Positions 18,182 through 51,906 are shown, counted from the first letter of the stretch. The stretch is 64,000 nucleotides of DNA from Alphaproteobacteria bacterium (GCA_964291285.2 OZ219785.1:32001-96000); one strand, 5' to 3'. Numbers and translations: made by a program. The notes: generated from the letters alone by a model not told the origin.

Positions 18182-20135
18182 TCAGGCGATTTGCCGCCTG
18201 ACCAGCTCCCTGAATACCCCGTCGACCTCCATGAGCTCGTTGAAGGAGCCGCTTTGCACGATCTTCCCGGCCTGCAGCACATAGATGCGGTCGGCCTGCT
18301 CCAGGGTCGATAGGCGGTGGGCGATGACAATCCGGGTGGAGGTAAGCGCGGTGAGGTTTTGCATCACCCGGGCCTGGCTTTCGTTGTCCAGCCAGTTGGT
18401 GGCCTCGTCGAACAGCATTACCCGCGGGCTGCCGATAACCGAACGGGCGATCGTGATGCGCTGCCCCTCGCCGCCTGACAGGACGGTCCCGCTGGTGCCA
18501 ACCATGGTCATCATGCCCATGGGCATGCCCCTGATCTGGTCCTCCACTTCGGCGACCCGGACCGCTGACCACACTTCGTCGTTCGTCACGTCCTCGCGAT
18601 GGCTGACCAGGTTGTCCCAGAGGTCATGGGGGTGGAGGCCGACCGATTGCGGCACGGCGCCGATTTTCCGGCGCAGTTGCTTCAGGTTCAGATGCCTGAG
18701 ATCGCGTCCGTCGTAATACACCGCACCGGCGGTCGGCCTGTCGACTCCAAGGGCAAGCCGGAACAGGGTGCTCTTGCCCGAGCCGGACTCGCCGGCAATC
18801 GCGATGAAATCGCCGGCACGGGCATGGATCGTGACATCGTCGAGAACCAGCGGGCCGTCCGGGTCGTAGCGGAAGGAAATGCGATCGAACAGGACGTCGC
18901 CGCCCAGATATTCGACCGGCTCCCCTTCCACCTCCGTATCGGGAATTGCGGCCAGCAGGGGGCGCATCTGATCGAACGCCGGGAGCATGGCGGCCATGGC
19001 GCTGAAAGACTCCCCGAGCCGGCCGACCGCGGACTGGAAGGCGATGAAGACGGTGTAAACGACGAGAAAATCGCCGATCGGAAGGGTCCGGTCACCCACC
19101 GTGGCCACAGCGAAGAGCAATACCCCGCCGGCAAGAAAGGGGAGCGCGGCGCCGAACGCCCGCGAATGCGCCTCAAGCGCATCCAGCTCGATCTCCGCGC
19201 GTTTCTGCACGCGATAGTCCCGCGCCCAGATAGCGAAGGCCGACCCTTCCGCGTTTTCCACGCGCAGCTTGGCGATACCGCCCACGATCTGGAACAGCCG
19301 CCCGGATACGCGACGCGCTGCGTCGATCATCCGCCCGTAAGGCGAGACCTGGCGCAACCCAAGGACTGTCGCGACCAGCAGCGAAGCCAGGCTGAAGACG
19401 AGGGCGATGATGCCGAGTGCGGCATCGTAGAAGAAGATGACAGCAAAGACCGGCAGCAGAAAAACGATCGACAACAGGCTGTCGGCCACGACTCCCTGTA
19501 CGCCGTCCCGGAGATTCTGGAACGTCATGCCCGACATGGCCAGATCGCCGGCCGGACGGCGGTGCAGCACGCCTGGCGGGAGGCGCATGAGGCGGTCCCA
19601 GAAAGCAGCTTCGACCCGCGACGCCGAGCGTCCCTCAAGGCGCATCATTGCCGAGCTTTGAAGCAGGTGCAGCAACGCGCCGAGCAAGCCGAACCCCGCG
19701 ACCGCCAGGGCCACGATGTAGAGCACTGCGGCGCTTCCGCCCGCCGCTATGTGATTCGCGGCGAAACCGAGCGCAATTGCCGGCAGCAGCTTGATCAGGC
19801 CGCCCGGAAGCCCGGCAGCCACCAGCCGCGCCAGATCCCCGGCCGATCCATGCAGGGCGATTTTCAGCAGGTCTGCCGGTTTCACGTTCCCCGACGGCAA
19901 CGGCCGGTAGAACATCCAGGCTTCCTCGGCCAGCGCGCCGGCGCGCTCCGCCGTCATCCGGACACTGCGCTTGCTGACCGGGTCCACTTCCCGGTAGCGC
20001 CCGAACATTCCCGGCAGCAGCGCTACGGGCTGGCCGTCCTCGGCGCGGAAGCCCAGCATCGCGTTGCTGTCGCCCCGCCACCAGTCTCCCTCGCCCTTGA
20101 ACCGCACGCGCCGGGCGCGCACACCCGACGCATCC
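18182..20135 (-). pseudogene. NHLM/NHLP bacteriocin-system ABC transporter, 5'-truncated
   Basis: TM domain, GESGSGKST, LSGG, FDEAT. Recognisable sequence begins abruptly at DASGVRARRV, with no RBS and no N-terminal domains. Confidence 0.82.
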
Positions 20136-20146
20136 TTGATGCAAAG
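20120..20146 (-). other. MOBF oriT/nic-like site (copy A) at the ABC-gene breakpoint
   Basis: Minus strand CTTTGCATCAAGGATGCGTCGGGTGT^G. 24 of 27 positions identical to 31191-31217. Confidence 0.65.
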
Positions 20147-20322
20147 AGCGAGGCCCGGCCGGCCTGCATCGGTCGGCAGTTTTCCGTTGCGTGACAGACG
20201 GTTGGGCCTGACCCGGCCTCTGACCGCGGTTTCGCGCGCGGGTCGCGTTGTCCGTTCAAGAGCGCCGTTCCGTTCCCCCGGGACGGACGGCGCCCGAGGG
20301 AACAGACAACGGAGACACGCCC

Positions 20323-21459
20323 ATGCGCATCCATGCCCCCGTCAACGAGCGGACGGTCCGCCGCACCTTCAGGGAGAAGAAACCCGGACGATACGGCCTG
20401 ACCGTCATCGACAGGGACCTGCCCGCCTTCGGCTTCACCGTCGCCGGGAACGGAACGAAGACCTTCTTCGTCCGGACCTCACGCCAGTTCGGCGCGCCCA
20501 GGGCGATCCTCGGCACGACCGACGACATGACCGCCGCCGAGGCGAGGGAGAAGGCCATTGCCGCCATCGCCGAAGCCAAAGCCGACCGCGAGACCGGGCC
20601 GCTGTTCGCCGACTTCGCGGCCGACTTCATGCGCCGCCAGGGGCGGCGCTGGAAACCCTCCACGAGGAAGGCCAACGCCCATCTGGTCGAGCGCGGCCTC
20701 GTGCCCTTCTTCGGCGCGATGCCCGTCGCGAAGATCGACCGCGCCGATGTGCGGCGCTGGTTCGATTCCCTCAGCGGCGCCCCCGGCAGCGCCAACCGGA
20801 CCCTGCCGGTGCTCTCGGTGATGATGCGGCAGGCGGAGCTATGGGACCTTCGCCCGCAGGGCTCCAACCCCTGCCGCAACATGCGGCGCTACAGGACGGC
20901 GCCGCGCGAGCGGTTCCTGTCCCTGGACGAGTTGAAGCGCCTCGGCTTCGTCCTCGACCATGCCGAGGACCGGCAGGCCGCCGCCGCCATCCGCCTGCTG
21001 CTGTTCACCGGCGCCCGGTCGTCCGAGATCGCCAGCCTGCAATGGGACTGGATACGGGACACCCGCGCGGTGTTGCCGGACTCCAAGACCGGACCGAAGG
21101 CGCTCCAGCTTCCCCCGCCCGCGCGGGCCGTCCTGAATGGCCTGCCGCGCGAGGGACGCTTCGTCTTCCCGAACGGGAAGGGCGACGGCCCGATGACCGA
21201 CCTCGGCCTGCGCTGGCAGAAGCTGCGCGGTCTCGCCGGGCTGGACGATGTGCGCATCCACGACTGCCGGCATACCTTCGCCTCCCATGCCGTGATGAGC
21301 GGCCTCGACCTCTACACCGTCGGCCGCCTGCTCGGCCATGCCGATACCGCCTCCACCGAACGCTACGCCCATCTCGCCGACGAGCATGTCCGCGAGGCGG
21401 CCGGGCGCATCTCCGGCATCGTCCACGGCGCCATGACCGGGAAGGAAAGCGGGCGATGA
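20323..21459 (+). CDS. tyrosine recombinase/integrase 1 (short arm-binding domain)
   Basis: TGARSSE, DSKTG, HDCRH, LLGH and TERY catalytic motifs. Confidence 0.93.
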   Translation: MRIHAPVNERTVRRTFREKKPGRYGLTVIDRDLPAFGFTVAGNGTKTFFVRTSRQFGAPRAILGTTDDMTAAEAREKAIAAIAEAKADRETGPLFADFAADFMRRQGRRWKPSTRKANAHLVERGLVPFFGAMPVAKIDRADVRRWFDSLSGAPGSANRTLPVLSVMMRQAELWDLRPQGSNPCRNMRRYRTAPRERFLSLDELKRLGFVLDHAEDRQAAAAIRLLLFTGARSSEIASLQWDWIRDTRAVLPDSKTGPKALQLPPPARAVLNGLPREGRFVFPNGKGDGPMTDLGLRWQKLRGLAGLDDVRIHDCRHTFASHAVMSGLDLYTVGRLLGHADTASTERYAHLADEHVREAAGRISGIVHGAMTGKESGR

Positions 21460-22805
21460 GCGGCGGCAGGCATCGTGTCCGGCTCACCGTGAAGGCCGTC
21501 GCCGCCGCCAAGCCGGCGGAACGGGAATACACCCTGTGGGACAATCTGCTGGCGCATTTCGGGGTCAGGGTGCAGCCCTCCGGCGTCCGGTCCTGGATCG
21601 TCCAGACCCGCGTCCGGGGACGCATGCGCAAGATCACCCTCGGGCGCTTCCCCGAACTGCCTCTCGACGCGGCGCGCCGGGAAGGCGCAGCCGTGCTCGC
21701 CCGCCTGTGGGGCGGCGAGGACGTGACGCCGCCGCGCAAGGAGAAGGCGCCGCTGTTCCGGGACTTCGCCGCCCGTTACCGCTCGCGGCGGAAACACCGC
21801 TGGAAGCCGTCCTCGCTCAAGACCTTCGATAGCTACATGAAGAACCGCCTGATGCCGCATTTCGGCAGGCTCCGGCTCGACGCCATCGACCATGCGCGGG
21901 TCTCGGCATGGTTCGACGCCGCCAGCGCGGACAGGCCCGGCGCCGCCAACCGCGCCTTCGAGATACTCCGCGCCATGCTCGGGACGGCCCGGCAGTGGGG
22001 CGACATCGGCGAGCATGTCCCCGATGCCTGCGCCAACATCGTGAAGAACCCCCGCAAGCCTGTCGCGCGTTACCTCAGCCGCGAAGAGCTGGAGCGTCTC
22101 GGCGCGGTGCTCGACCGCCACCGGAAGGAACACCCCTGGCCGGTGGCGGCCATCCGGCTGCTGACGCTCACCGGGGCGCGGCTCTCCGAAGTCATCAACC
22201 TCAGGTGGGACGAGATCGGAGAGTTGACCGGAGACGGCGCGAGCGCGCGCATCGAAGACTCCAAGACCGGGCCGCGCACCATCTGGCTCGGACCCGAAGC
22301 GGCAAGGCTGGTCGAGGCGCTGCCGCGACCGGATGGCCGGGAGCGGGTGTTCCCCGAGACCCTCACACCGGCAAGGCTCTACACCTTCTGGTGCGGTATC
22401 CGCGACGAGGCGGGGCTTCCGGGCCTTCGCATCCACGACTGCCGCCACACCTGGGCCTCGCAGGGCGTCATGAACGGCGTCGGGCTCACCACCGTCGGAC
22501 GGCTGCTCGGACACCGCAAGCGGGAGACCACCGCGATCTACGCCCATCTCGACGATGGCGCGCTGCGGGTCGCCGCCGCCCAGGCCGCCGCCGTCATCGC
22601 GCGAGCGATGGGGTACAGGGCGGAGGCGCCTCCGCTGCCGGACGAGGCGGCGCACGGCGATGCATCGGCCGACATACCTGTGCCGTCCAGGCCCGGTGCG
22701 TCGGCATCACCGGAGGGAGGGCGATCCTCCCTCCGGGTCAGGACCGGGGATCCGGAGCGATCGGATGCAAGCATCCGCCGTAGACCGCAGGGTATCGGGA
22801 TCTGA
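21456..22805 (+). CDS. tyrosine recombinase/integrase 2 (arm DNA-binding domain)
   Basis: EYTLWD..FGVRVQPSGVRSW..TLGRFP arm domain; TGARLSE, HDCRH, LLGH, TAIY. ATGA overlap with integrase 1. Confidence 0.93.
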   Translation: MSGGRHRVRLTVKAVAAAKPAEREYTLWDNLLAHFGVRVQPSGVRSWIVQTRVRGRMRKITLGRFPELPLDAARREGAAVLARLWGGEDVTPPRKEKAPLFRDFAARYRSRRKHRWKPSSLKTFDSYMKNRLMPHFGRLRLDAIDHARVSAWFDAASADRPGAANRAFEILRAMLGTARQWGDIGEHVPDACANIVKNPRKPVARYLSREELERLGAVLDRHRKEHPWPVAAIRLLTLTGARLSEVINLRWDEIGELTGDGASARIEDSKTGPRTIWLGPEAARLVEALPRPDGRERVFPETLTPARLYTFWCGIRDEAGLPGLRIHDCRHTWASQGVMNGVGLTTVGRLLGHRKRETTAIYAHLDDGALRVAAAQAAAVIARAMGYRAEAPPLPDEAAHGDASADIPVPSRPGASASPEGGRSSLRVRTGDPERSDASIRRRPQGIGI

Positions 22806-22963
22806 GTTTGCGGCGGGCATGGAGCCGATCGGGGACCCTCAGGCGGGGTCTTTGCCGTGAAAATGGTTGGGGATCGGGCACACAAAAACCCCTCCCCGCC
22901 AAAGCACTGCTTCCGAGGCGTCCGATACTCGCCATCTGCGGCGCCCGTCTTGCGGATCGTGAA

Positions 22964-23704
22964 TCGAAGCCGCTGGACCGCATCGGCGAGGCCGCCATCC
23001 GGCGCTGGTTCGAGCGATACAGCCGCACCGCGCCGGGCAACGCCAATCCCTGCCTTGCCCGTCTGCGGCAGATACTCAACTTCGCCCTCGCCTGCGGCCA
23101 CATCGAGGTCAATCCCGTCGGGCGCATCGCCCCGAACCGCCGCACGGCGCTCACGCGGTTCCTGTCCCGGGAGGAACTCGCACGCCTCCATGCCGCCCTG
23201 GACGCGCAGACCCGGAAGAGCGCGCGGCAGCAGGCCGACATCGTCCGCCTCCTGCTGCTGACCGGCTGCCGCAGAAGCGAGATCACGGGCCTGCGATGGT
23301 CCGAGGTCCGCGACGACGGGTTGGCGCTCACCGATGCCAAGACGAGGCCGAGGACGGTCCCGCTCGGCAGCCGGGCCCGGGCCATTCTCGACCGGCAGCC
23401 GCGCGCGGGCAGCCCGTTCGTGTTTCCCTCGCCGTGCGACCCCGCCCGCCCGCGCAGCCCGGACCTGCCGCTCTGGTACCGCGTCAGACGCGAAGCCGGC
23501 ATCGGGGATGTCCGCCTTCATGATCTCCGGCATACCATGGCGAGCCATGCCGTCATGAACGGCGTGCCCGTCCCGGTGGTCTCCCGCCTGCTCGGGCATT
23601 CCAATGTGAGGATGACGCTGCGCTATGCCCATCTCGCCGACCGCGAGATCGAGGCCGCCGCGGAACGCGTCGGGCAGGCCATGAGCGCCGTGCTGGAGGC
23701 TTGA
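22964..23704 (+). pseudogene. tyrosine recombinase 3, N-terminally truncated
   Basis: TGCRRSE, HDLRH, LLGH and TLRY are intact. Similarity to the paralogs begins only at KPLDRI, and no convincing start codon. Confidence 0.8.
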
Positions 23705-23745
23705 TGCACGACCCGGCCCGATGCTGCCGCTATCGGCGTGTCCGG

Positions 23746-24996
23746 TCAGAACTGTCGCACGAAGGAGAGTTCGGCGCGGTTGCGGTCGTAGTCGAGGGCC
23801 TGGGCGTTGGTATCGCGCTCCTCGCGGATGAGCGAGAGGCGGGGGCTGAAGCCGAGCACGGTGACGGCGCGGTTGTGCACGGAGAACGAGAGGGTGCGCG
23901 TCTCGTCCCGGCGCGGCCTGCGGTCGATGGTGTTGTGGGCGAAGCCCTGTCCCTGGTATGCGGCGCGCTGCAGGGAGGCGCGCAGGCCGAGGGTGAAGCC
24001 GGCCGGCAGCGCGAGCGTCGCGCCGAGGCCGGCCCGGGGTCCGCGGTTGCGCCAGTGTCCGGCATTGGCGCGGGTCCAGTTGTATCCGGCATGGCCGCCG
24101 AGGCGCAGGATCGGCAGGGCGGCCCAGCTTGCGCCGAGCGTCGCATCGCCCGCCGGGCCGTCGAGCCAGTTGCAGCCGCGGCAGTTGCGCCGGGTGGCGC
24201 TGGCGTGGGCGAACAGGGCGAGGCGCGGCGTCAGGCGGTGCGCGCCTTCCAGCCGGACGCCGAAGCGGTCGGTCTCGGGCCGCCCGGCGGTCCATTGCCG
24301 GTCCACCACCGCCAGCAGGCTCGCCTCCGTGTTCTCGTCGATCAGCCGGCGCGGGCCGATATGGGCCGAGAGCGAATGGCGGTCGAACGCCCCGCCCTTG
24401 TATTCCCGCGCGCTGGCGTCCGCCCCGGCGCGCAGCCGCAGGGCCGGCGAAAGCGGAACCTGGTATTCGCCGCCGCCCCACAGCGAGACGCCGATGCCCG
24501 ACTTGCGCGACACGTCGCCGTCGAGGGTGAAGGGCAGGCGCCCGAACGGCGTGTCGAGGAAGACCGTGCGCTCCCCCGATGCGGCGTTGAGGTTGCTGTC
24601 GGGCGCCACCGCCAGGCCGAAATGCGCCTCCCAGCGCCGCCGCGCGCGCATGATGTCGAGGAAGCGCCGGATGTTGGCGGCCACCGCCGGCGGCGGCGTC
24701 CCCGCCAGAACCTGTTCGAAATGCCGCCGCGCCAGGCTGTCCTCTTCCTTCAGGAAGAAGGCGTGCGCGAGTTCGAGGCGCACCCGCACCAGGTCCGGGC
24801 GGTCCACCAGGATGGCCCGGAACGCCGCAATCGCCTCGTCGAGCTTCCCGTCGCGGGCGTCCCGGTCCGGGGCGGCCTGCGCGGCGGCAAGCGCCTCCAT
24901 GCCCGCCCGGAACCGCTCGCCGGTCGCGTCCTGGCCGTGGGCGGCGGCCGCGAACAGGCACAGCCCGGCGGCAATGACGAGAGCGGGTATGCGCAT
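23746..24996 (-). CDS. Slam/DUF560-type outer-membrane translocon (TPR plus beta-barrel)
   Basis: Signal peptide, TPR (RVRLELA..ARRHFEQVL), DSNLN motif, amphipathic strands, terminal F. Confidence 0.85.
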   Translation of the reverse strand: MRIPALVIAAGLCLFAAAAHGQDATGERFRAGMEALAAAQAAPDRDARDGKLDEAIAAFRAILVDRPDLVRVRLELAHAFFLKEEDSLARRHFEQVLAGTPPPAVAANIRRFLDIMRARRRWEAHFGLAVAPDSNLNAASGERTVFLDTPFGRLPFTLDGDVSRKSGIGVSLWGGGEYQVPLSPALRLRAGADASAREYKGGAFDRHSLSAHIGPRRLIDENTEASLLAVVDRQWTAGRPETDRFGVRLEGAHRLTPRLALFAHASATRRNCRGCNWLDGPAGDATLGASWAALPILRLGGHAGYNWTRANAGHWRNRGPRAGLGATLALPAGFTLGLRASLQRAAYQGQGFAHNTIDRRPRRDETRTLSFSVHNRAVTVLGFSPRLSLIREERDTNAQALDYDRNRAELSFVRQF

Positions 24997-25050
24997 GGGA
25001 ACCCCTGTCCGTGCAAAGGGAACCTCCGGCCGCCCGGAGAGCGCCGGAGG

Positions 25051-25086
25051 AAAGAAGGCCCCGGCCGCCTGAAGCAGCCGGGGCCT
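25051..25086 (-). terminator. rho-independent terminator after the lipoprotein gene
   Basis: aggccccggc/gccggggcct stem followed by a short T-rich run on the minus strand. Confidence 0.65.
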
Positions 25087-25109
25087 GAACCGGAGGCTAC
25101 GGGAGCCGG

Positions 25110-26822
25110 CTACTCTGCCGGCGCCTGTATCCTCGTCGAGAAGGCGCCGATAGCGTGCCCGTTCGAGAAGTGGGCGTTGAAGACACCCAGGATGCCGGCC
25201 GGGCGCCCGATGCCGTCCTTGTTGAAGGGCCCGGAGTCCCAAAGGCCAGTCTTGTCGTGGGCGGAAGCGCCTCTGGAACCCGTGGTAACGCCGCGGTAGA
25301 CGGTCAAGTCGTCCTGCGCGGTCTCCGCGAGCTCGACGCTCCAGTCCTCGTCGACGGCATTCCCCATGAAGTTGTCGATCGTGCCTCCCAGTTTACGCTC
25401 GCCTGCATCCCCGAACTTGGCGTTGAGCGTCACATCCGCCGTGAACTGTGCGGACTTCTGCCCCGTGTGCTCGCCGGCGGTGAAGGTCTTCAGCACCGAC
25501 AGGCCCAGGGCGTTGCCCTTGTAGGTGGCGGTGGCGGGCAGAGCGGCGTTCTTGGTGAGGTCCCCGCGATAGCCGGCAGGGCTGTTTGCGAGGACCGTGA
25601 CCCCGGTGGTGGAGCCGGTCTCATACAGCCAGTACCCGTAGCGGGCATAGGCATGGTACGTCGTGTAGTGGGAGTTCCTCGGCGTCATCCAGTAGTAGCG
25701 ATAGTTGCCCGCGTAGCCATCGTCGAATTCGTCGGCCGCCTTGAAGAACAGCTTGCCGGTCAGCTTGTCGCCAGGGGCAGAGCAGGTGCCCTGGCAATAC
25801 AGCGTCCCCTTGACCCCCTTGTAATATTGGTCCTCGGAGAGGTCGGTGGGATATGCATCCAGGGCCTTTCCGCTCGAGTTGGTGAGTGCGGACAGGGGCA
25901 TCCCGGCAAGGGGCAGGACATCGACATCCATGTTGTCGGCGCCGAAGGCCTTCTTCACGAGCATCCCATCCTTGGCGGCGATCTGCTCCCAGGTCATGAC
26001 GCCGGCCGGAAGTTCGCCGTCGTCATACCTGTGATAGAACATGGAGCGCCCGGTGTTGTCGGTGTGGTCCTGATCGGAAGTGGAGGGGAGGACAACCTTC
26101 GTCGGCGGCGGAGCAGCGGTCGGGGTTTCAGTGTACATGGCCGAGACCCTGGCATCGTAATTGCCGCCCGCACGAGCTGTGTCCGCAGGCTCCAAGGCAT
26201 GGAGCATCCGCCTCGCGGGCCTTGTCGAAGTCTTGAGGCCGCCAGCGGGGGTTTCGCCGGCGCGGTTCTTGATTTTCGCCTCTGTATCGACCGGCGAGAG
26301 AAGGCCCGCGAACGTCTGGGGTCCGCCGGTCAGGGTCTTCTCGATGGCCTTGATCTCCGCTTTCACTGTTTCGATCTGACCCGTGACCACCTTCTTCTGC
26401 GCCGCAAGGCCGGTCGTGCCGGCCGGCAGGGCGTTCAAATCCGTCAGCGCCTTCTCGGCCGCCGTCAGCGCCGCCTTGGCGTCCGCCAGCGCCTTGTCGG
26501 CCGCCGCCTTCGCGTCCATGATGACCTTGGCGTTGGCCCTGACCATCGAACTGTCGCCTCCGACGCTGTAGATGTCATACACGCCTTTCTTCTTGGCCTC
26601 GGCCAGCTGAGCTTCCGCTGTCTTCCTGGCATCCATCGCCGCCTTCTCGGCTGTCCCGGCGGCGTCATAGGCCGCCTGCGCCTTCTGGGCGTCCGTCATC
26701 TCCATCTGCTGGTCGCCGTCCATCGGCGCGGCCGCCTTCTTCCCGCCACCGCCTCCGCAGCCCGCGAGCGCCAGGCCCGCAGCGGCCATCGCCGCCAGAG
26801 CCACATGTCTCATGGTTCTCAT
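25110..26822 (-). CDS. surface lipoprotein with TbpB-like C-terminal barrel (Slam substrate candidate)
   Basis: Lipobox LAGC plus GGGGG, Ala/Lys-rich coiled coil, ATYKGNALG...GTIDNF...GAF C-terminal barrel motifs. Confidence 0.8.
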   Translation of the reverse strand: MRTMRHVALAAMAAAGLALAGCGGGGGKKAAAPMDGDQQMEMTDAQKAQAAYDAAGTAEKAAMDARKTAEAQLAEAKKKGVYDIYSVGGDSSMVRANAKVIMDAKAAADKALADAKAALTAAEKALTDLNALPAGTTGLAAQKKVVTGQIETVKAEIKAIEKTLTGGPQTFAGLLSPVDTEAKIKNRAGETPAGGLKTSTRPARRMLHALEPADTARAGGNYDARVSAMYTETPTAAPPPTKVVLPSTSDQDHTDNTGRSMFYHRYDDGELPAGVMTWEQIAAKDGMLVKKAFGADNMDVDVLPLAGMPLSALTNSSGKALDAYPTDLSEDQYYKGVKGTLYCQGTCSAPGDKLTGKLFFKAADEFDDGYAGNYRYYWMTPRNSHYTTYHAYARYGYWLYETGSTTGVTVLANSPAGYRGDLTKNAALPATATYKGNALGLSVLKTFTAGEHTGQKSAQFTADVTLNAKFGDAGERKLGGTIDNFMGNAVDEDWSVELAETAQDDLTVYRGVTTGSRGASAHDKTGLWDSGPFNKDGIGRPAGILGVFNAHFSNGHAIGAFSTRIQAPAE

Positions 26823-26899
26823 CGAACCCTTCTCCTTCTCTCGGCCCGGACAAACCGGGCAAACCGTTTGAACCGTTCCTTCGCCGCGCGAAACGCAGG

Positions 26900-28081
26900 T
26901 CAGAAGCTCAGCGTGATGCCGGTCACGAACCCGGCGCCCTCGACATTGCTGCCGGCGGCATTGCTGCCGGTGCTGGGCGCAGGCTTGCCTCTTTGCGCCG
27001 ACGGCACGCCGAAATCGTACTTGCCGGGCATCGTGCCGCGGTCCTTCTCGGCCATGAACAGCGAGCTTCTCCAGGCAATGCCCGGCGCCAGCATGTAGCT
27101 CGCCGAAAACAGGCCGCCCGACTGCTCCGTGCCGTCGTCGGCCTCGGTCATCGTGCCGCTCAGGCTCACCGCCAGCGCGCCTTCCGAATACATCACCCCG
27201 GCGGCCACGACCTCGACATCGTCCGAGGAGTCCGTCTTCATGCCGTCGTCCGCCGTGGCATAGGCGACATCGAAGCTGAACGCCCCCATGCCCACCCGCA
27301 GGCCGGCATTCGAGAAGGTGTAGTCGTCGGCGTCCATCTGGCTCTTCTGGTAGTGGCCCGCAGAGAACGCCAGGTTCATGTTGCCGAAATCGCCCTTGTA
27401 GTTGCCGGCGACCGACCAGGCGTCCTCGTCATTGTTCTTCACATTGCCGCCACGGCCTTCCTGCCCGGTGTTCGGGATGTAGCTCACGGCCATCTGCGCG
27501 CCGTTCACCCGCGGCGTGAAGTAGCTCACCAGGTTCTTGTCGCCGAGGCCGTGGCCCGCGGTCCCCAGGCCGGAGGGCCCGCACTCGTTGATGCCGTTGA
27601 TCCATCTGCCCATGTCGCCGCAGAGCATGCCGAAACCGGCATCCCGCACGCCCATGTGGGTGAGAACCACCGCGCTGTCCTCGGCTCCCAGCGTGATCTG
27701 ACCGAACTCGCCGCCAACCGTCAGCTGCGACTCGTCGATCATCGAACCCGAACTGTTGCCCTCGAGCTCCACCTTCACCGAGAAGGTCATGCCGTTGTCG
27801 GCGTCCAGCTTGCCCTTGAAGAAGATCTCGCTGTCCGACTGCTGGGCAACGCCGCCCTCTTTCATCGCGTCCGCCTCGTCGTCCACATCGACCATCCCGA
27901 ACCACTGCTGCATGTAGCCGCCGACGCCCACGCTCAGCATGTCCGCCGCAGACGCGGGACCCGCCGCAAGCGCAAGACCCGAGGCCGCAAGAAGAACCTT
28001 GCCCGTGAAACCCCGCGCTCGGCATCCGCCATGCTGCCTGCCGTCCCCCGGCCATGCCGGGCCATGTCCTGCTGTCGTCAT
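26900..28081 (-). CDS. alphaproteobacterial porin
   Basis: ASA signal cleavage, EIFFKG, VELEG, IDE, YFTPR motifs, terminal F. GAAGGAG RBS. Confidence 0.85.
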   Translation of the reverse strand: MTTAGHGPAWPGDGRQHGGCRARGFTGKVLLAASGLALAAGPASAADMLSVGVGGYMQQWFGMVDVDDEADAMKEGGVAQQSDSEIFFKGKLDADNGMTFSVKVELEGNSSGSMIDESQLTVGGEFGQITLGAEDSAVVLTHMGVRDAGFGMLCGDMGRWINGINECGPSGLGTAGHGLGDKNLVSYFTPRVNGAQMAVSYIPNTGQEGRGGNVKNNDEDAWSVAGNYKGDFGNMNLAFSAGHYQKSQMDADDYTFSNAGLRVGMGAFSFDVAYATADDGMKTDSSDDVEVVAAGVMYSEGALAVSLSGTMTEADDGTEQSGGLFSASYMLAPGIAWRSSLFMAEKDRGTMPGKYDFGVPSAQRGKPAPSTGSNAAGSNVEGAGFVTGITLSF

Positions 28082-28422
28082 CGTCTCGTCTCCTTCAGGT
28101 GAAAGCCCGTCCGCAGCGCCCGTCGACCGCCGCACGCCGGAGAAGGCGCACGACGGGGCGGCAGGTCACCGGGGACGGGAGGTGAAGCCGCGGCCCCGGA
28201 AAGGCCGCGGCAGAAAGCGTGCCGGGGAAGGCCGGGCCGCCCGCAAGGCGGTCATGCCGCAAGCGCGGCGGGCGCGCTCCCCGGCAACGTATCCATCTGC
28301 ACGCGCCCGGCGCTCCTCCGCAGAGGACGCACGGGCGGGAAAGACAACAATCAGGCGGGAGCCGCTCTCCCGATGGCGAACCGGCAGACCGGCGCCAGAA
28401 GACGGCATATGAAAGACATGAA

Positions 28423-28540
28423 GAGGCGCGAGGCGCGAGGCGCGAGGCGCGAGGCGCGAGGCGCGAGGCGCGAGGCGCGAGGCGCGAGGCGCGAGGCGCG
28501 AGGCGCGAGGCGCGAGGCGCGAGGCGCGAGGCGCGAGGCG
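28423..28540. repeat. perfect 7-bp tandem repeat (GAGGCGC) x ~16.9
   Basis: 118 bp, read directly from the sequence. Confidence 0.97.
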
Positions 28541-29503
28541 TATTCTACACCGTGTTCGAGCCGCTGAAGTCAAGTCCGGATACACCCGCCGCTGAGATGG
28601 CCCGGAACCTCTAACCCGGCCGCACGACACCGCACAACCTCCCGGACCAACCCGAACGCCGATTTTACCGACCTGTTGCATCCATGCCACAGTCAGCCGC
28701 CGACGGGCCCCCGCAAACCGGGCCCGCGGCGCCCATCGACGACCGGCAGGCGCGGCTTTCTCCACCGGCGTGCAATGGAACGCAATGGAGCGTCCGCTGC
28801 CGCGTCTTCCCCACTCCAGGCCCGCCGCCGCCAGCGGCGCATCGACAAATGCGCCGCCCTCCCCCGGGTCTCGTCCCCGCTCTCCCGGTTCGCCATCCGC
28901 CGCCGCTCGATCCGCGACAGGACCGCCGCCTCCCGCAGCACCCGGAGCAGAAGGTTCGTTGACGGACCCGCCGCCCCGGCGCCTCCACCGGGCCGGCGAG
29001 CCGGTGCGCGATGTAGCGGAAGACCATCATGCCGGACCGCCTGCGCGCTCGCCGATGCGCGCCCGTTTCCCGCCGGGCGCCATCACCGCGCGCTGCGCCG
29101 CCCGGCGGCCGGCTCATGACGACGCTCCCGCAACCGCCGCAGCCGTCACCATTCCGATTTCCATCGGCCAACATGCTTGCGTTTCTCCTGTATCAATTAT
29201 GGTATTCATCCTCTCAAGAGGTGATTCGGTGCATCACCGCTATGATCCTGACTGTCTTCGCATCAGGAGACTATCCATGCATGGAGCTATCCTCCATGCC
29301 CCCCTGAGCACAACGCATTGTCCTTGTTCACTTCCCCCAGTGCCATTATCGCCTTTACGGCTTCCCCGTAGGTCAATCCGGTTTCCTGCCATTGCCTCTT
29401 GTCATGCCCGGAAATATCCAGTATTCAGGCCCCCTCATGGGAGGAATGCGACCTTTCGTCAGATAGTGCCCTAACGTGAAAAATCTCATTTGAGATTTAC
29501 ACG

Positions 29504-30409
29504 CTCGAGACCGTCGGACAGTCCGCAACCGCGACCGTCTGCGAACACGCCGCCCTCTACGGCGCCACCCCCGAGCGCGACGAACTCGACCCCCGCGAGG
29601 TCTGGGATGAGGACGATGCGCTGACCGCAATCGGCGAGGCCTTCCGCATCCTCGCCGAAGGCGCCTGCCCCGACGGCACCCAGCTCGCCGACGAACGCGA
29701 GAGCCTGCTGTGGGGCTTCGTCAACATGCTCCACGCCCAGAGCCGCCGCCTCGACCGCAGCGTCGACCGGCTCAGCCCGGACCTGCGCGACCTCCAGCGC
29801 GAGCAGGACGGCTCCGAGATCAAGTCCCGCGACCTGGAGCTCGTCACCGACCGCGCGCAGAACCTCGGAGACCGGCGCGACGCCTTCGAGAAGATGCGCA
29901 ACACCGCCGCGCACGCCTACCGCGAAGAGACCGGCGACATGTGGCGGCCCCGGCACGGCAGCCACGCCAGCCAAACCGGCACGCTCACCAGCGCCGCCAT
30001 CGACGCCCGCGACTTCGTCCGTGCCCGCAAGGACCGCGCGACCATGGCGCACCTGCCGCAGGGCACCCTCGTCGCCATCGCCGGCGGCAAGGACGTCGCC
30101 GCCCCGGCCGCGGTGATCGCCAGGCTCGACCAGGCCCGCGCCAAGTATGCCGACCTCGTGCTCGTGCATGGCGGCGGCCCCGGCGTCGAGAAGATCGCCG
30201 CAAGCTGGGCCGAGCGCAACGGCGTCCACCAGGTCGTCTGCAAGCCCGACTGGGACCGCCACGGTCGCGCCGCACCCTTCCGCCGCAACGACGAACTGCT
30301 CAACCTCCTGCCCAGGGGCGTCATCGCCTTCCCCGGCTCCGGCATCACCGAGAACCTCGTCGACAAGGCCCGCAGCCTCGGCATCCCGGTCATGCGCTGC
30401 CCCGCCTGA
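29504..30409 (+). pseudogene. DUF2493 (SLOG-family) plasmid/ICE protein, start codon missing
   Basis: LLWGFVN, TGDMWRP, VHGG, APFRRND, FPGSGI. The frame extends upstream of 29726 to a stop at 29477 with no start codon. Confidence 0.75.
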
Positions 30410-31184
30410 CACGCAGCACCCACGGGCCGCGTCGTCTCCGCTCCGGCGGCGGCGCGGTCCGTTTCCGTATGCGCACACCCGTTGCGCTGCGCCGCCGACA
30501 CCTCGCGCGCGCTTCGCGCCGCGCTCATGCGGAGCCTGCCCCGGACGACGATCCGGGGCTGCCGCATCACGCGCCGCTGCACCATGCTTCGCATGGGTGC
30601 ATCGCGGGCTGCGCCGGGCCCGGCGCAGTGCCGCCGGCACTGCTGACCCGCCCACTGCCGGCGCTGCTGCCGGACCGGCACGACACCGTGCTTCGCACCG
30701 CTGCCCGCAGTCCTGCAGGCGCCGCCGTCGGCGCCTCCGATCGCAACGGCTATCGCAACCGTCACCGCACCCGCGCGGCTGACGCCGCGGTAACGGGTGC
30801 GCCATCACCGTCTGCGTCTGCGGTAATGTGTGAGCAGCACGCGATCACCCTGAACAGCCCCGCTTTCGTCCGGCACGCCTGTATCGCGGTAACATGTGCG
30901 CGGCGTCCTTCGGCTCCGCGGAACATGTGCGGCGGCGCCCGTGCCGCCGAGGTAACGCCGCCGGCTCCGGTGCGCCATGTGTGAAGACTGCCCTCCGCCG
31001 TTTGCACGCCGCGCCGCGTTCTGTTACCTCTGCCACCGAACGACAACGCGGAACGCGCTCGAAGATCGCGGACCGGTCGTCTCGCTCAATCGCCGCGACG
31101 GCTCCCGTCCCTTGTGACGCCGGCGTTTCAGGCGATGGTGGTGTGCAGGGCAACCTCGCCCGATCTCGACTCCGTTCGGAGTTT

Positions 31185-31217
31185 TACCGTCACACCCCAC
31201 GCATCGATGATGCAAAG
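31185..31217 (-). other. MOBF oriT nic site (copy B)
   Basis: Minus strand GCATC-atc-GATGC hairpin running into TGCGTGGGGTGT^G, which matches the F-plasmid nic sequence as I recall it. A MOBF relaxase is encoded 6.5 kb away. Confidence 0.78.
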
Positions 31218-31292
31218 TGTCCAGGGAGCCCTCAGAGCTGCCCTTTCGGGGGCTCTGGGGGTCACCAGGGGTCTCGGAGTTGTTGGAGCAAG

Positions 31293-31400
31293 CGCCATGC
31301 GCTCGCCATGCGCGGATCGTCATCGCCCAGACCTCTGGAGGCCCCGCCTGTCCCCGGCGCCATGCGCGCGCCATGCGCGCCCTGTGGCAGCGCCATGCGC
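31293..31400. repeat. five direct repeats of CGCCATGCGC
   Basis: Copies start at 31293, 31304, 31358, 31369 and 31391. Confidence 0.85.
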
Positions 31401-31588
31401 CGAAATTGGCCAAGCGATGCAAGCGGCTCGCCCTTTTGCATGCGCCGTGATGACCTTCAGCGACCAGCGTCTACCTCGATCTGCTCTTTCAGATCGGCAC
31501 GTACAGGCGAGGTGCTGACAGTGATCTGCTCGAACCAAAGGACTGCCGCCCCTCCTTCCTTGAGCGTGATCTCGTCCACGCTGCGGCT

Positions 31589-32464
31589 GTGGCGGATACC
31601 GTTCCGGAGGTCCGCGAGTTGTCCGAAGCGCCTTCCGAGAGTCCCTTTGTTGGCGAGGCGCCCCTCGAAACGCTGCCGGAGCCCCCGCAGTTGAGGCGTC
31701 AAGTCCGGCCGTTTCTTCATCAGAAGATCTTCCATCGCGTCCTGGAGCGTGCGTTGCCGCTCCACGAAAGTCCCGTGCCCCCCTTTTCCGCTTCCGGCCC
31801 GGCGCAGAGGAAATTCGCAAGCGAGCATTTGGAGCGGCGCGCGCCCTCGTGAAAGCCGGCCACGGTGAAGGCGACATTGAGCTATCTCGACATCGCCATC
31901 CTGTCTACGTTCGGCGATCTGCAAGTCGGCTCGGTCCTGCACCTGCGCGAACGTGAGAAACAAGTCTGCGTTGCGGCAGTGCGGCTGCTCCTGCAGACGG
32001 AGTGCAGGCCGGGCGAAATTCGCCGCCTGCGCTGGTGTCAAGTCAAGCCCGACCGCTTGACCCTGATTGACGCGAAGACGGGACCGAGGCACGTTTTGCT
32101 CGGCGAGTCGGCACGGGAACTGCTGGACGGCCTTGCCGAATCAGCGTCCGGGGAGTGAGTGTTTCCGACAAGTAGGCGAGACGGGCGATTGGGCAAGAAC
32201 GAATTCCACTACTTCTGGACCGCGACACGCGACGCGGCCGAGAACGTGGCGGATGCGCGGCTGCATGACCTCCGCCATGCGCACGCCTCGCACGCGGTCA
32301 TGAACGGGAAAAGCCTGCAGGTCGCAGGTCGTCTGTTCGGACATCGCCGAGCGTCCACGACGAACCGCTATGTCCATCTCGATGACGCGATCCCGGGCCA
32401 AGGTTCCGAGCGGGTTGCAGCGGTGATCGAACAGAAACTACGCCGAACGGAGCCGTTCGGATGA
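31589..32464 (+). pseudogene. degraded tyrosine integrase
   Basis: One frame with two TGA stops (31850, 32156) at Trp positions and an internal deletion. CRPGEI, DAKTG, HDLRH and TNRY remain. Start uncertain. Confidence 0.85.
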
Positions 32465-33369
32465 GCAAGAATCCCTCGGGAGCTGACGTTGCCCGCTGTC
32501 GCGCCGAGATGGCGAGTTTGCTTGCGGAGACGCTCGAGAAGACGCGTAGGCTCGAGGGGAGGCTGGATGTTTCCGGTGGTTGGCGCGAGGCCACGGCGAA
32601 AGTCGACATCAGCGCAGATCCAGCCGCAACGCTTCGGATCGAAGGCGCGCTTATGCTCCGCAAGGCGCGGATACACACGGTCGCTGTCCTCCGAGCCAAC
32701 GAGACCAGCAACCTGCATTCGCTCGCAGTGCAGATGAGGCCGGTTCTTGAGTGTGCCGGACAGGTCGTGTTCAAATTTCAAACCGCAATCATTGCGCCGA
32801 ACGTGCTGATGTCACCGGAAAGTGCCGTCGAACAGTTGGGGAAGCGACTGAATGCGGACTTTTATCAAACGTTGCGCAACCGAACGAGAGGCCAAGTCAG
32901 TCGAAAAGAGCTGCTCGAAATCGCGACGCAGGCGCGATCCGACGCCGCAGCGTCAGTTGGGGCCGCAACGCCGAAAAGGCAGAAATCGTGGAGCCTGAGG
33001 CATACGGACAAGGTGTCTATCCTTCCGAAAGGCCACGCGTGGCACAACTACCTGAGCAATCACTTTACCCACGGCAACCTGTCGGATTGGAAGGGGCTGT
33101 CGTGGCGTGGTGGAGTTATTTCGATCGACAGGGTGGAGGACCAGTTCGCGTTTCTGGGTTTGATGTCCTATCTCACGGACCAGGTGGCTCTCATGAACGC
33201 TGCTGCCGCTCTGTGCCCGGTTGCAGGCGACGCGGACGATCAATGGGACCGGTGGGTAGAACCCACGTTGGCGCAACTGCGCGAAGTGCGGCAGTCGTCG
33301 AAGAGTCTCGTCGACGCCGCCAGGGTGGCCATGACCGGAGAACTAGATGGAAGCGCTGGACTCAATTGA
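32461..33369 (+). CDS. hypothetical protein (possibly DUF5677-like helical protein)
   Basis: 302-aa ORF with ATGA overlap to the integrase remnant; RPVLE...YLSNHFTH pattern. Confidence 0.6.
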   Translation: MSKNPSGADVARCRAEMASLLAETLEKTRRLEGRLDVSGGWREATAKVDISADPAATLRIEGALMLRKARIHTVAVLRANETSNLHSLAVQMRPVLECAGQVVFKFQTAIIAPNVLMSPESAVEQLGKRLNADFYQTLRNRTRGQVSRKELLEIATQARSDAAASVGAATPKRQKSWSLRHTDKVSILPKGHAWHNYLSNHFTHGNLSDWKGLSWRGGVISIDRVEDQFAFLGLMSYLTDQVALMNAAAALCPVAGDADDQWDRWVEPTLAQLREVRQSSKSLVDAARVAMTGELDGSAGLN

Positions 33370-33910
33370 GGAACTGCGCGCGCTGTGTGAACAGGATCGC
33401 GATGTGCTTCGTGACCTCGCCCGAATCCATATCGACATCGACGCGCCGAATCGGAGGGTCAAGCCGAACGAGCCAGATTGGGTCTTCCGCCTTCGCAAAC
33501 TATGCCTCCATGTGGTGGCGATGGCCGAATGCGAAGTCAGCTGCGATGACCTGCATGTAATGACGACAGAATTGCGGGCAGCGTACGAGCAGATGGACGC
33601 GGTGTGGAAGTGTCTGCCCGAGGAGTTCCGGTTCAATGATGACAGGGACTGGTGGTCCCACGAGGCAGACGACGGGCTGGCGGCATACAACCATCCCACG
33701 CCGGTCAGTTTGGCTTTTCCATTGGCGAAGGGCGGTTTCAGCGATGCAGAGGCATCAGAGAGTTATCTGCGGCTCGCCGTGTGGATAGGCCGCCTGGGAT
33801 GTGGATACGGAATGGCGCTCGCGCATCTGGCACAAATGCTGGGCACCGAAGGCGACATCGAGTCTCGTCTGGTATCCGTGCTACCCGACATCGACAGGGC
33901 CGGCCGGTGA
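33347..33910 (+). CDS. hypothetical protein
   Basis: 187-aa acidic ORF with GGAG RBS, overlapping the upstream gene. Confidence 0.6.
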   Translation: MEALDSIEELRALCEQDRDVLRDLARIHIDIDAPNRRVKPNEPDWVFRLRKLCLHVVAMAECEVSCDDLHVMTTELRAAYEQMDAVWKCLPEEFRFNDDRDWWSHEADDGLAAYNHPTPVSLAFPLAKGGFSDAEASESYLRLAVWIGRLGCGYGMALAHLAQMLGTEGDIESRLVSVLPDIDRAGR

Positions 33911-34006
33911 CCCCGGTATTGATCGATCCACCAATCGGTTGCGCCCGTGTGGTCTCGACGCAGCAGGTCGGCCTGCCGTCCGTCCCGTTGAACTATTGAA
34001 ATCATC

Positions 34007-34153
34007 ATGGCGCTGATTCCACCAAGATACCTGAACGCGGTCGTTTCTTTGAAAACAACTGGCCAGTCCTTCCAACACGTCGGTACGGGGTTCCTGTACG
34101 CCCAACCCCCACCCGAAGGGCAGGGCCACACACCGTATCGGGGATACTTGGTT
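34007..34153 (+). pseudogene. N-terminal fragment of a trypsin-like serine protease
   Basis: MALIPP..AVVSL..GTGFLY..YLV, cut off before the catalytic His. Confidence 0.5.
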
Positions 34154-34440
34154 AAGAGCGAGCAGCGACAGGCGATCAAGGCGCTGCACCGGATGCGTCA
34201 GCAGTTTGTGAAGTTTGGTACCGCTCAGATCAACGGTCTGCGCGGCCCTCTGATCGAATACGGGGAAGTCATGCCGAAGGGTCGGGCCGGAATTAGCCGC
34301 ACGATCGCTCCTGCCCTGGAACGGGTCGCCGAGCGGCTGCCGGCGATAGTGATCGACACGCTTCGCGAGCAGCGGGCGCGGGTAGGCCAACCCGGCCGGG
34401 AGATCGGCGAGATCGAGCGGCGGATCGGCGCGTGGCACCG
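34154..34440 (+). pseudogene. IS110-family transposase internal fragment
   Basis: KSEQRQAIKALHRMRQQFVK..TAQINGLRG..EYG motif. Confidence 0.7.
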
Positions 34441-34541
34441 TCGCGCCGAGGCCCTCGAAGACCACAAGGCATTGCTGCTCAGTCATCTCGACGAAGAGCA
34501 CATGATATACGACCATGAGTTCTGCCAAGCCTTGCTCCTAG

Positions 34542-35414
34542 GCCCTGTGGACGTATTGACTCAGGAGCGTGTTCAGGGATTCCCGTGCGAGGATTTGTCT
34601 GAATCATGAGGCGTCGGCGATTCGGGGGTTTCGTTGATGTCGACGAAGATGACGAATGGAGACTGGGAGGTTGCGCTGGAGGTTTTCCGGCTTTGCCTTC
34701 CGAGGCGGGGTGCGAAGGCGAAGGACGACCGTCTGTTTCTGGAGGCGCTGCACTTCTTTGCGGTTCACAACATCACCTGGCGGGCGCTGCCGGAGCGGTT
34801 CGGGCACTGGAATACGGTATGGCGGCGTTTTCACCGTCTGAGCCGTTCAGGGGTGTTCGAGGACTTTTTCGCCACGCTGGCGGATTTGAGCAGCACGGCG
34901 CACCTGGTTCAGATGTTCGATTCGACCGTGACCCGCGCGCATGTATCGGCGGCCGGCGCAAAAGGGGGCAGCAGGGTCAGGCGCTTGGACGCTCGCGGGG
35001 CGGTTTCAGCACCAAAATCCACCTGAAGACCGATTTCGACGGCCTGCCGATCGCCTTCGACCTGACCGGCGGCGAGGCAGCCGACAGTCCGCATTTCGAG
35101 ACCCTGATGGACATCGGCCCCGATGTCCGGCCCCGCGCCATCGTCGCCGACAAGGGCTATGACAGCGCCGGAAACCGCCAACTCGCCCGGAAAAGAGGCG
35201 CCCTGACCGTCATTCCCTACCGGAAGAACATCAAAAACAGGCCAAAGCGCTTCGCAAGCGCGCTCTACAGAGGACGGGCGCGCATCGAACAGGCCGTCGG
35301 CAAGCTCAAACGCTTCAAACGCATCGCCCTGCGCTGCGAAAAGACCGCCACAAACTTCAGCTCCTTCGTCGCACTCGCCGCTGCCTTCATCTTGATCAAA
35401 TCCGTCCACAGGAC
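34542..35414 (+). mobile_element. IS5-family (IS427-like) element, copy 1, 873 bp
   Basis: IRs gccctgtggacg / cgtccacaggac, flanked by CTAG on both sides. Confidence 0.92.
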
Positions 35415-35418
35415 CTAG
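34637..35418 (+). CDS. IS5-family transposase, two ORFs joined by a probable -1 frameshift
   Basis: WRALPERFGHWNTVWRRF in ORF A; GRSRGGFSTKIH, ADKGYD and RIEQ in ORF B; AAAAGGGGG slippery site near 34960. Confidence 0.88.
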
Positions 35419-35706
35419 GCAAGTCGTATTAGCGGCCAATACACCTGGAATGAATTTGATGTTGAAGGCCAAACAGTTCGATTACGGTACGGCCTTAGCG
35501 CATCGGGGATATAACAGGGGATATTTTCGTTCATGGCGGGGTTGGCGCTTTAACTGGCTCGGCATAAGGACGCTGGAAAACGAATTTCTATCCAATGCCA
35601 ACAATTTATGTCATTACACCCATCACGTCTTTCAATTGCACCGAATAGAGCAGATTAAATTAGATCTGGATTATTCATCGATCGCCTTCGTGGATGGAAG
35701 CTCCTC

Positions 35707-37370: not shown

Positions 37371-37373
37371 GAT

Positions 37374-46221: not shown

Positions 46222-46235
46222 ATTATATAAGGGAC

Positions 46236-51902: not shown

Positions 51903-51906
51903 GGCT

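Follow-up and report, generated by a model that had tools for sequence, protein, structure and literature searches.

Predicted MOBF transfer origins bound a family of integrative mobilizable islands and a split RiPP exporter gene in an alphaproteobacterial genome

INTRODUCTION

How does the nick region of a conjugative transfer origin come to lie exactly where a peptide-exporter gene is cut? The question is raised by a 64,000-nucleotide stretch from an Alphaproteobacteria bacterium (positions 32001-96000 of contig C1 of the genome that we denote G000, which comprises 6.1 Mb in five contigs, C1-C5, at 68% G+C; hereafter, the window). Two direct 27-nt repeats, copies A and B, delimit a segment of this window, and copy A coincides with the broken end of an ATP-binding cassette (ABC) exporter gene in a cluster for a ribosomally synthesized and post-translationally modified peptide (RiPP). 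An earlier note, made from the sequence alone, had taken both repeats for origins of transfer (oriT) of the MOBF relaxase family and had proposed that a relaxase joined the element to an oriT mimic inside the ABC gene. Our analysis confirms the observation and supports both the oriT reading and the gene-cutting junction, and it indicates that the repeats bound an island belonging to a genome-wide family, whose junctions were probably made by its own pair of integrases rather than by a relaxase.

RESULTS

Two direct repeats with the layout of a MOBF nick region

The two repeats are as follows, with the predicted nick marked by a caret.

20120..20146, minus strand: copy A, CTTTGCATCAAGGATGCGTCGGGTGTG; hairpin GCATC-aag-GATGC, GT, CGGGTGT^G; junction between the island's right (class-1) end and what remains of the ABC gene on its 3' side
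31191..31217, minus strand: copy B, CTTTGCATCATCGATGCGTGGGGTGTG; hairpin GCATC-atc-GATGC, GT, GGGGTGT^G; joined on its 3' side to the left (leading) end of the island

The sequences, their 24/27 identity, their direct orientation and their spacing of 11,071 bp are all as the earlier note had reported. A degenerate pattern allowing up to three mismatches matched copies A and B and nothing else in the window, and none of 100 dinucleotide shuffles contained a match. The A/B pair is not unique, in that the motif recurs on all five contigs of the genome.

Copy B shares TGCGTGGGGTGT^G, 13 of 13 positions, with the F oriT oligonucleotide TTTGCGTGGGGTGT^GGTGCTTT given in PMC2504302, and copy A matches it at 12 of 13. 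A scan for TGCATCANNGATGCGTNGGGTGTG in one genome per species returned 103 stretches, and 80 loci were examined; one of them (L068, Prevotellaceae, with T at the variable position) was dropped as a chance hit, which left 79. Carriers of the 24-nt motif are nearly all metagenome-assembled genomes (MAGs), labelled as Alpha- or Gammaproteobacteria, Binatia, Rariloculaceae, Poribacteria or Acidobacteria. By tblastn, 20 of the 79 loci have, upstream of the motif and on its strand, a type IV coupling protein and a relaxase 70-89% identical to those of the window; the nearest end of such a match is 755-1193 nt from the motif in 10 of these 20 and up to 5.4 kb away in the others. At none of the 20 relaxase-type loci does an integrase intervene, and leading-region sequence follows the motif at every one (20/20). 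Genes for YAcAr, DUF4326 and single-stranded DNA-binding protein (SSB) downstream of the motif are always on the opposite strand, so that the motif (transferred) strand is their template, and a plasmid survey describes SSB and other leading-region genes as oriented in this same way (PMC11541004). An oriT is expected in just such a place, where the leading region enters the recipient first and the relaxase and mating genes enter last, and the position of the motif between a coupling protein-relaxase pair and these genes argues that it is a MOBF transfer origin.

Within the genome, a core of the motif is found at a distance of 426-864 nt from 22 of the 26 YAcAr copies, and a perfect hairpin of 5-6 bp stands just before GT plus seven nucleotides in 20 of these 22 YAcAr-linked cores. 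Four stems occur (GCATC/GATGC 14 times, GCGCC/GGCGC 3, GCAGC/GCTGC 2 and TCACCT/AGGTGA once); the stems covary, and GT, the seven-nucleotide spacing and the following G stay constant. The two cores without a hairpin, one at the 5' half of the ABC gene and one at the 3' end of an integrase gene, are both joined to the left-end sequence LEa described below. Folding energies of the single hairpins count against this picture, being weakly better than those of shuffles (z -0.3 to -1.6); given such weak folding support, the case for the hairpin rests on the covariation of the stems instead. On these comparisons, the 27-nt sequence is a predicted MOBF oriT nick region made up of a short hairpin, GT, seven bases and a nick at GGGTGT^G, the nick position being assigned by identity to F. 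The MOBF architecture that had been claimed for both copies is thereby borne out in the F identity of copy B, in the hairpin layout and in the relaxase and leading-region context at other loci.

An island without a relaxase and its family of ends

From copy B to copy A, the window holds an 11.1-kb integrative mobilizable island without a relaxase, composed of the following parts.

20147..22854, plus strand: right-end module with 100 nt of conserved spacer, int1 and int2 (Pfam); 11 genome copies at 96-99.9%
20248-21459, plus strand: int1, P4-like tyrosine recombinase (Pfam)
21456-22805, plus strand: int2, P4-like tyrosine recombinase (Pfam)
22808..23704, plus strand: int3, a third tyrosine recombinase (Pfam), outside the conserved end module
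23746-25242, minus strand: cargo, Slam (Pfam)
25110-26822, minus strand: cargo, protein without a family match (Pfam scan)
26900-28135, minus strand: cargo, porin (Pfam)
29503..31190, minus strand: left-end (leading) module LEa, starting with ACGGTAAAACTCCGAACGGAG directly 3' of the nick; 10 genome copies, 88-99.6% identical
29726-30409, plus strand: YAcAr/SLOG gene within LEa (Pfam)

A blastn comparison of this segment with the genome resolves it into three parts, with variable cargo between a left module of about 1.7 kb and a right module that measures about 2.55-2.74 kb and carries int1 and int2. The start of int1 lies about 102-105 nt from copy A, and both int1 and int2 have intact catalytic signatures (TGxRxSE, HDCRHT and GH..Y, corresponding to R, HxxRH and GH..Y). 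The leading-region module carries YAcAr in the window and DUF4326 and SSB in sister copies of the island. Integrase genes had been claimed beside each of the two repeats; the claim stands for copy A, which has int1, int2 and int3 on its plus-strand side, and falls for copy B, near which there is a decayed remnant (about 31766-32440) within an insertion of about 6 kb that is foreign to the site.

A recombinase-in-trio (RIT) element is defined by three tandem tyrosine recombinases that are inherited as one unit. Here, int1 and int2 alone are conserved with the end module (el1 8364-11098), and no three co-inherited tandem recombinases were found; int3 belongs to a separate repeat of about 725 nt (22963-23688) that occupies 30 places in the genome at 76-97% identity and is distributed independently of the island ends. 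Between int2 and int3, at 22847-22962, lies a 116-nt mini-repeat with about 50 copies over the five contigs (92-97%), often paired about 206 nt apart. The island cargo is also repeated elsewhere in the genome in other contexts, and just upstream of the porin gene region the heptanucleotide GAGGCGC is repeated in tandem about 20 times (28409-28562).

Reading along the motif strand, we define a right end as conserved sequence that finishes in the full hairpin motif and is followed by variable DNA, and a left end as variable DNA that finishes in the 12-nt core only and is followed by conserved sequence. The exact core, GCGT[CG]GGGTGT[GA], occurs at 22 sites, in addition to looser ones, on all five contigs. 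Right ends are of class 1 (11 copies) or of the type RE2 (5), left ends of the types LEa (10) and LEb (8), and about 20 motif junctions are present in this one genome of about 6 Mb. In the window, LEa directly follows copy B and a class-1 end directly precedes copy A; six LEa...class-1 pairs, spanning 11-52 kb, can be drawn in the genome. int1 is present at 97-100% identity at all 11 class-1 ends. A direct class-1|LEa junction was not found in the genome assembly. Among 16 other species of the genus, LEa was found in none and an LEb-like sequence (three mismatches) in three, with no further junction series. RE2 was considered as the 3' end of a gene and rejected in this role, its frames being just 54-97 aa.

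Several further observations concern mobile DNA around these ends. The genome has 21 TrwC-domain matches and 103 int1-like matches, the latter mostly in tandem pairs. Two further repeats, one of 1.94 kb at about 35 positions and one of 2.0 kb at 13, are interpreted as insertion sequences (IS); many of these features lie near oriT junctions. In another element family (C2:638341-639564, L012:5341-6564), the second of two tandem integrase genes reads toward a core, and its stop codon TGA overlaps GGGTGTG-A, such that the core is part of the 3' end of the integrase gene and has no hairpin. A repeat of about 1.13 kb starts 1 nt past the motif in L044, a Binatia MAG, and has eight copies in G000 (e.g. 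C2:1389993-1391120 and C4:262483-263610), some of them within 1-2 kb of oriT junctions; this repeat may be an insertion sequence that aims at the motif oriT.

The RiPP exporter gene is divided at a look-alike of the nick core

Copy A abuts a RiPP cluster of the NHLP type, of which three features matter here.

12016-14463, minus strand: YcaO gene of the NHLP-type RiPP cluster (profile search)
about 16840-18330, minus strand: NHLP-leader region of the cluster (profile search)
18182..20134, minus strand: 3' two-thirds of the NHLP-type RiPP export ABC gene (TIGR03797), cut at the motif

The product of the truncated gene aligns with positions 38-686 of 686 of the NCBIfam model TIGR03797 and scores 648, below the cutoff of 709. 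When 60 relatives were searched, 13 other genomes had a match to the gene; at the nine best orthologous loci the open frame runs to 978-1098 aa (about 990 aa when intact), and in the window to 719. In the eight intact orthologues that we aligned, nucleotide homology sets in at window position 20134/20133, which places the crossover inside the motif, exactly at copy A. At the breakpoint, the closest orthologues (92-93% protein identity) read CATGCGTCAGGCGTG, in the context ...gttctcCATGCGTCAGGCGTGcgcgcccgg..., which matches GATGCGTCGGGTGTG at 12 of 15 positions and codes for (H/D)ASGV. The earlier proposals that the repeat encodes DASGV where ABC similarity begins, and that the ABC gene contained an oriT mimic, thus agree with the alignment.

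The missing 5' half lies on another contig, at C3:~375700-376728, where about 340 N-terminal codons end in ...gttctccatGCGTCGGGTGTG and are followed at once by LEa; its upstream neighbour is the gene for a C39-peptidase ABC partner. The displaced half that the earlier note had proposed to look for is therefore present, and the LEa behind it is 99.6% identical to that of the window over 1058 nt, the nearest of all copies. At both junctions, G and T stand at the positions that are A and C in the closest orthologues. Homology between the ABC gene and the island amounts to just about 15 nt, and both gene halves end at this same 15-nt look-alike, each with a proper island end, which argues that a LEa...class-1 island inserted in the ABC gene and that later recombination between island copies separated the halves onto different contigs.

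Logan contigs from public sequencing runs, compared with window positions 18500-28300, contain both states of the site. Contigs of the sponge-metagenome run X1 agree with 20012-20133 at all positions but one and run on from there into the 5' part of the ABC gene, and in this uninterrupted allele the site matches the core at 14-15 of 15 positions. In runs X22 and X24, contigs that start in the 3' part of the ABC gene span the junction and reach 20157 and 20143, respectively, at the island end; public-run contigs break at the island, a highly repeated element. No circle of the island is evident from these contigs, in which rare junctions would not appear. Runs that contain parts of the junction are mostly labelled as sponge, coral or marine metagenomes, in small shares. 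In the four genomes reached through the motif loci (G061-G064), no intact ABC allele above 72% was found.

The conjugative element around copy B

Upstream of copy B on the motif strand, the window carries the following features of an F-type conjugative element.

31191..31406, minus strand: conserved oriT region 5' of the nick (type-4 upstream sequence; blastn, 70-80%)
31407..37385: insertion of about 6 kb between the accessory gene and oriT (profile and blastn evidence)
about 31766-32440: decayed integrase remnant within the insertion
34007-35418: IS110-like and DDE transposase pieces within the insertion
35707-36522: pentapeptide-repeat gene within the insertion
37374-37766, minus strand: conserved 130-aa gene, homologous to a relaxase-adjoining gene in other motif loci
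37756-40779, minus strand: MOBF relaxase-helicase of the TraI/TrwC type (Pfam, NCBIfam), with YY..YY and HD..HxH motifs
40745-42820, minus strand: TrwB/TraD coupling protein (Pfam, NCBIfam)
43306..53228, minus strand: F-type mating-pair genes TraG, TraH, TraF, TraN, TraU, SSB, TraW and an S26 peptidase (Pfam)

Coupling protein and relaxase lie 6.5 kb upstream of copy B on the same strand. The region 31191-31406 has homologues at 17 loci (including L034, L039, L099, L055, L062, L070, L040, L087, L096 and L080), where they immediately precede the motif; several of these loci have a relaxase directly upstream, and the order of 130-aa gene, relaxase and coupling protein adjoins the motif in other genomes too. 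Because this region and the 130-aa gene form a conserved relaxase-oriT interval, here split by about 6 kb, copy B is the putative native oriT of the window's conjugative element, and the integrase sequence near it is incidental. Relaxase matches in PLSDB are at most 41% identical, and no plasmid oriT could be read from a close relative.

A group II intron reverse transcriptase/maturase (53911-55449) lies inside the mating-pair row, which seems to stop there; TraC, TraB, TraK and TraE were not seen among the scanned open reading frames of the window.

Other features

The flank upstream of the LEb end at C1:151736 was considered as the missing ABC 5' half and rejected, as its translation has no ABC sequence; it is an oriT variant with a GCAGC stem that follows Cas9/Cas1 and a second relaxase. 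Between this second MOBF relaxase and the GCAGC-stem variant lies a type II CRISPR-Cas module (C1:152886-156974, L014:6886-10974; Cas9 with HNH and RuvC, and Cas1), which is cargo of the neighbouring conjugative element.

A tRNA-type attachment site was also rejected: ARAGORN's sole RNA gene in the window is a tmRNA gene at 6641-6948, and the motif lies outside it. This tmRNA gene, beside sspB, is of the permuted (two-piece) kind with the tag ANDNEVALAA and is unrelated to the motif.

DISCUSSION

Which enzyme makes the junctions

We regard it as probable that the junctions are integrase-made, at a phage-type attachment site (attP) that overlaps, or is, the oriT, and in this we part from the earlier note, which had named the relaxase as the joining enzyme. 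Integrase genes accompany every class-1 end of the genome and lie 105-252 nt from the motif, on the opposite strand, in 18 of the 79 loci, which belong to several phyla; in form, therefore, related elements do use the motif as the core of an integrase attachment site, a use that the earlier note had named as contrary to its own proposal. Ends without a leading region behind them, leading and non-leading flanks being judged by eye, make up 7 of 18 at integrase-type loci, 0 of 20 at relaxase-type loci and 4 of 41 at unclassified ones. A more specific indication comes from three LEb modules that are 99.8-99.9% identical over 1.5 kb and yet are joined to two end types: a GCGCC-stem end with GT-GG-GGTGTG, a GCGCC-stem end with GT-CT-GGTGTG and a class-1 end with GT-CT-GGTGTG. 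The rare T at -6 is shared by LEb sisters across the two end types, which suggests that this variant travelled with the downstream partner; an exchange at the nick cannot produce such movement, and a staggered exchange over SGGGTGT can. Empty sites are present as well. In L066, RE2 is directly followed by the same e/f-type leading sequence that stands behind the class-1 end of the island C5:388674-419512, of which L066 is the empty-site equivalent, and a single look-alike site is found in the uninterrupted ABC genes of the eight aligned relatives and of run X1. For L075, an empty-site comparison with the own genome gave different neighbours and was of no help here.

Several points weigh against integrase-made junctions, and some of them favour a relaxase. 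The junctions fall exactly where a relaxase would cut, in every copy, and the similarity of the ABC target is one-sided, 14-15 nt 5' of the nick and none 3' of it, which is unusual, though not unknown, for tyrosine recombinases. We found no convincing inverted core-binding arms and no arm-type repeats common to both island ends; the two ends share no words of 10 nt or more, and their four shared 8-mers are at chance level (5.2 in shuffles). A dyad CGTC/GACG around GGGTGT occurs only with LEa and LEb. The -6 argument concerns one variant in three sister copies, and from the chimera L078/L097 it appears that an exchange can also fall on the left side of the hairpin loop, so that recombination over short homologies may play a part. 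IS elements or other repeats, rather than chromosome, make up several of the flanks scored as non-leading at integrase-type ends, which makes the count of integrase association weaker than it appears; the loci, moreover, are not independent. In addition, because the X1 allele shows that the ABC site may have matched the core at 14-15 of 15 positions before the insertion, the argument for an island origin of the T at -3 in the ABC junctions falls.

A relaxase could have made these junctions if a relaxase-bound transferred strand were joined to a nick-like site of the recipient, either an oriT or the ABC look-alike, after cleavage by the second tyrosine, with the integrase pair serving another step such as excision or array resolution. 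The YY..YY tyrosines and HD..HxH motif of the window's relaxase, the many TrwC-domain matches in the genome, the lack of a hairpin at the ABC site, the existence of an uninterrupted ABC allele with a near-perfect site (X1) and the fit of the one-sided similarity to the minimal TrwC target of 14+3 nt described in PMC3264647 all suit this route. It leaves unexplained the integrases 105 nt from the motif in 11 of 11 genome copies and near it in 18 loci elsewhere, the absence of non-leading DNA at relaxase-type ends and the T at -6 on two end types; no integrase-free elements were seen at look-alikes, and F TraI, with its matching nick core, is described as not catalysing oriT recombination (PMC3264647), which tells mildly in the same direction. 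We consider joining by the relaxase unlikely, if worth keeping in view. It is far less probable that the repeats are attachment sites pure and simple, with a coincidental or vestigial likeness to a nick region and the real oriT elsewhere: adjoining integrase genes, direct repeats flanking the island and an empty site would all be expected, and yet at 20 loci the motif stands between relaxase and leading-region genes and is without an integrase nearby, the 13-nt identity to F and the covarying stems would be unaccounted for, and the motif strand serves as template for every one of the leading-region genes. Least probable of all is an origin without any site-specific event, through a mis-assembly of the ABC gene at a repeat or through plain homologous recombination. 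The element is indeed highly repeated, public-run contigs break there, and homologous recombination between copies is also the best account of the B...A unit as it now stands; against this, contigs of X22 and X24 span the passage from the ABC 3' part to the island end, and the two gene halves end at the same look-alike with proper island ends, where gene and island have just about 15 nt in common.

Two sequences noticed by eye bear on how the integrase pair might recognize its site. From the motif to int1 (20147-20330), the spacer and leader contain AACGGA three times, and a further AACGGA lies in the LEa hairpin loop (31172-31178); AACGGAAAACT is conserved in the class-1 ends of other phyla; these are possible arm-type sites of the integrase.

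A proposed course of events

The integrase pair as the joining enzyme, and the order of events that follows, are what we infer from the anatomy of the ends. In a circular island, the ends would come together as a single oriT, with the class-1 hairpin and core followed by LEa, and this oriT would also be, or overlap, attP. A resident MOBF relaxase would nick this rebuilt oriT, and the leading module would enter the recipient first; after second-strand synthesis, the two tyrosine recombinases would integrate the circle at a core-bearing site. Most often the target would be an oriT, either in a resident conjugative element or in another island, giving rise to tandem arrays; rarely it would be a look-alike such as CATGCGTC(A/G)GG(C/T)GTG in the RiPP ABC gene. 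In the lineage of the window, one island copy may have entered the ABC look-alike and a sister copy the oriT of the conjugative element; homologous recombination between the two copies would then have produced the present order of relaxase, copy B, island, copy A and ABC 3' part, and the same recombination would have left the ABC 5' half with the other island end on contig C3. The RiPP cluster would on this account stand 3' of copy A only through the later recombination of two island copies, and not, as had been claimed, in the leading position of the conjugative element.

An integrated island is flanked by two nick sites, and transfer from the upstream to the downstream nick would deliver the island without excision. 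The 11-kb unit that the earlier note expected from transfer between B and A would be exactly this one, since the leading-region module lies 3' of B. Transfer that began at copy A and did not terminate would carry the RiPP genes first, in the manner of a high-frequency-of-recombination (Hfr) donor. Since the nick is the exact point at which all integrated islands and conjugative elements here are linearised, such nick-to-nick delivery can be extended to units resembling the transferred DNA (T-DNA) of Agrobacterium: the MOBF relaxase would start at one junction, finish at the next and yield a precise circle, and the relaxase, alone or with the integrase pair, would insert the strand at nick-like sequences. 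We put this forward as a speculative and rather improbable reading.

Relation to known systems

Islands that target nick sites have been described in Streptococcus, where integrative mobilizable elements (IMEs) with a tyrosine integrase insert in the oriT nick site of integrative conjugative elements (ICEs) of the Tn916 and ICESt3 families (Guedon et al. 2017, Coluzzi et al. 2017; PMC5704250, PMC5357655). As far as the descriptions in these reviews allow a comparison, the IME_oriT islands of S. agalactiae and S. mutans are similarly small, carry a tyrosine integrase, insert at an ICE nick site, can be present in several copies and ride in an ICE. In contrast, the islands reported here occur in Proteobacteria and other Gram-negative phyla, use a MOBF/F-type system, carry two tandem integrases and no relaxase, and reach about 20 copies in one genome, with one insertion in a look-alike that is not an oriT; moreover, their own ends rebuild an oriT with a leading-region module, and attP and oriT appear to be one site. 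Integration by TrwC of R388 is described as a laboratory reaction, with a target of 14 nt 5' and 3 nt 3' of the nick and frequencies of 1e-4 to 1e-7 per donor (Agundez et al. 2012, PMC3264647). Our case resembles that description in the MOBF relaxase, in the nick core as target, in a hairpin that is dispensable in the target and in the acceptance of look-alikes in unrelated DNA; it differs in the integrases beside the site in every island and in the one core variant that segregates unlike a nick exchange.

Mobilizable genomic islands (MGIs) of SXT/R391 and IncA/C, as they are described, likewise lack a relaxase, have their own integrase and borrow a helper relaxase through a related oriT, whereas their oriT is internal and their attachment site is the end of a chromosomal gene; here the oriT appears to be the attachment site, and the usual target is another oriT. 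The F oriT shares the 13-nt nick identity and the F-type mating-pair genes, and the present system departs from F in a relaxase less than 42% identical to any PLSDB plasmid relaxase, in an oriT directly downstream of the relaxase gene and in a nick-proximal hairpin, which is the layout of the R388 oriT. In the T-DNA of Agrobacterium, two direct repeats of a nick sequence delimit the transferred segment, with no integrase and no rebuilt circle in a bacterial recipient; two direct nick repeats also delimit the segment here, and the relaxase family differs. A search of the literature in its main texts did not find the combined features described in Proteobacteria or in sponge symbionts. What appears to be new is the combination: a MOBF/F-type system in Gram-negative bacteria, two integrases, an attachment site that appears to be the island's own oriT, a very high copy number and an identical 24-nt site across phyla.

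Nick-site-targeting islands had been known from a few streptococcal elements, and the same strategy is now found in Gram-negative F-type/MOBF systems. It offers a concrete route by which cargo, here an outer-membrane Slam-porin set, would be the first to be transferred, and it accounts for the replicon rearrangements and the broken RiPP exporter of this genome. The system is also a natural one in which to ask whether integration by relaxases takes place outside the laboratory, which until now has been approached only through engineered R388 assays; if the T-DNA-like reading were true, it would provide the first example from nature of a relaxase driving integration into a chromosome, spread over several phyla of sponge-associated bacteria.

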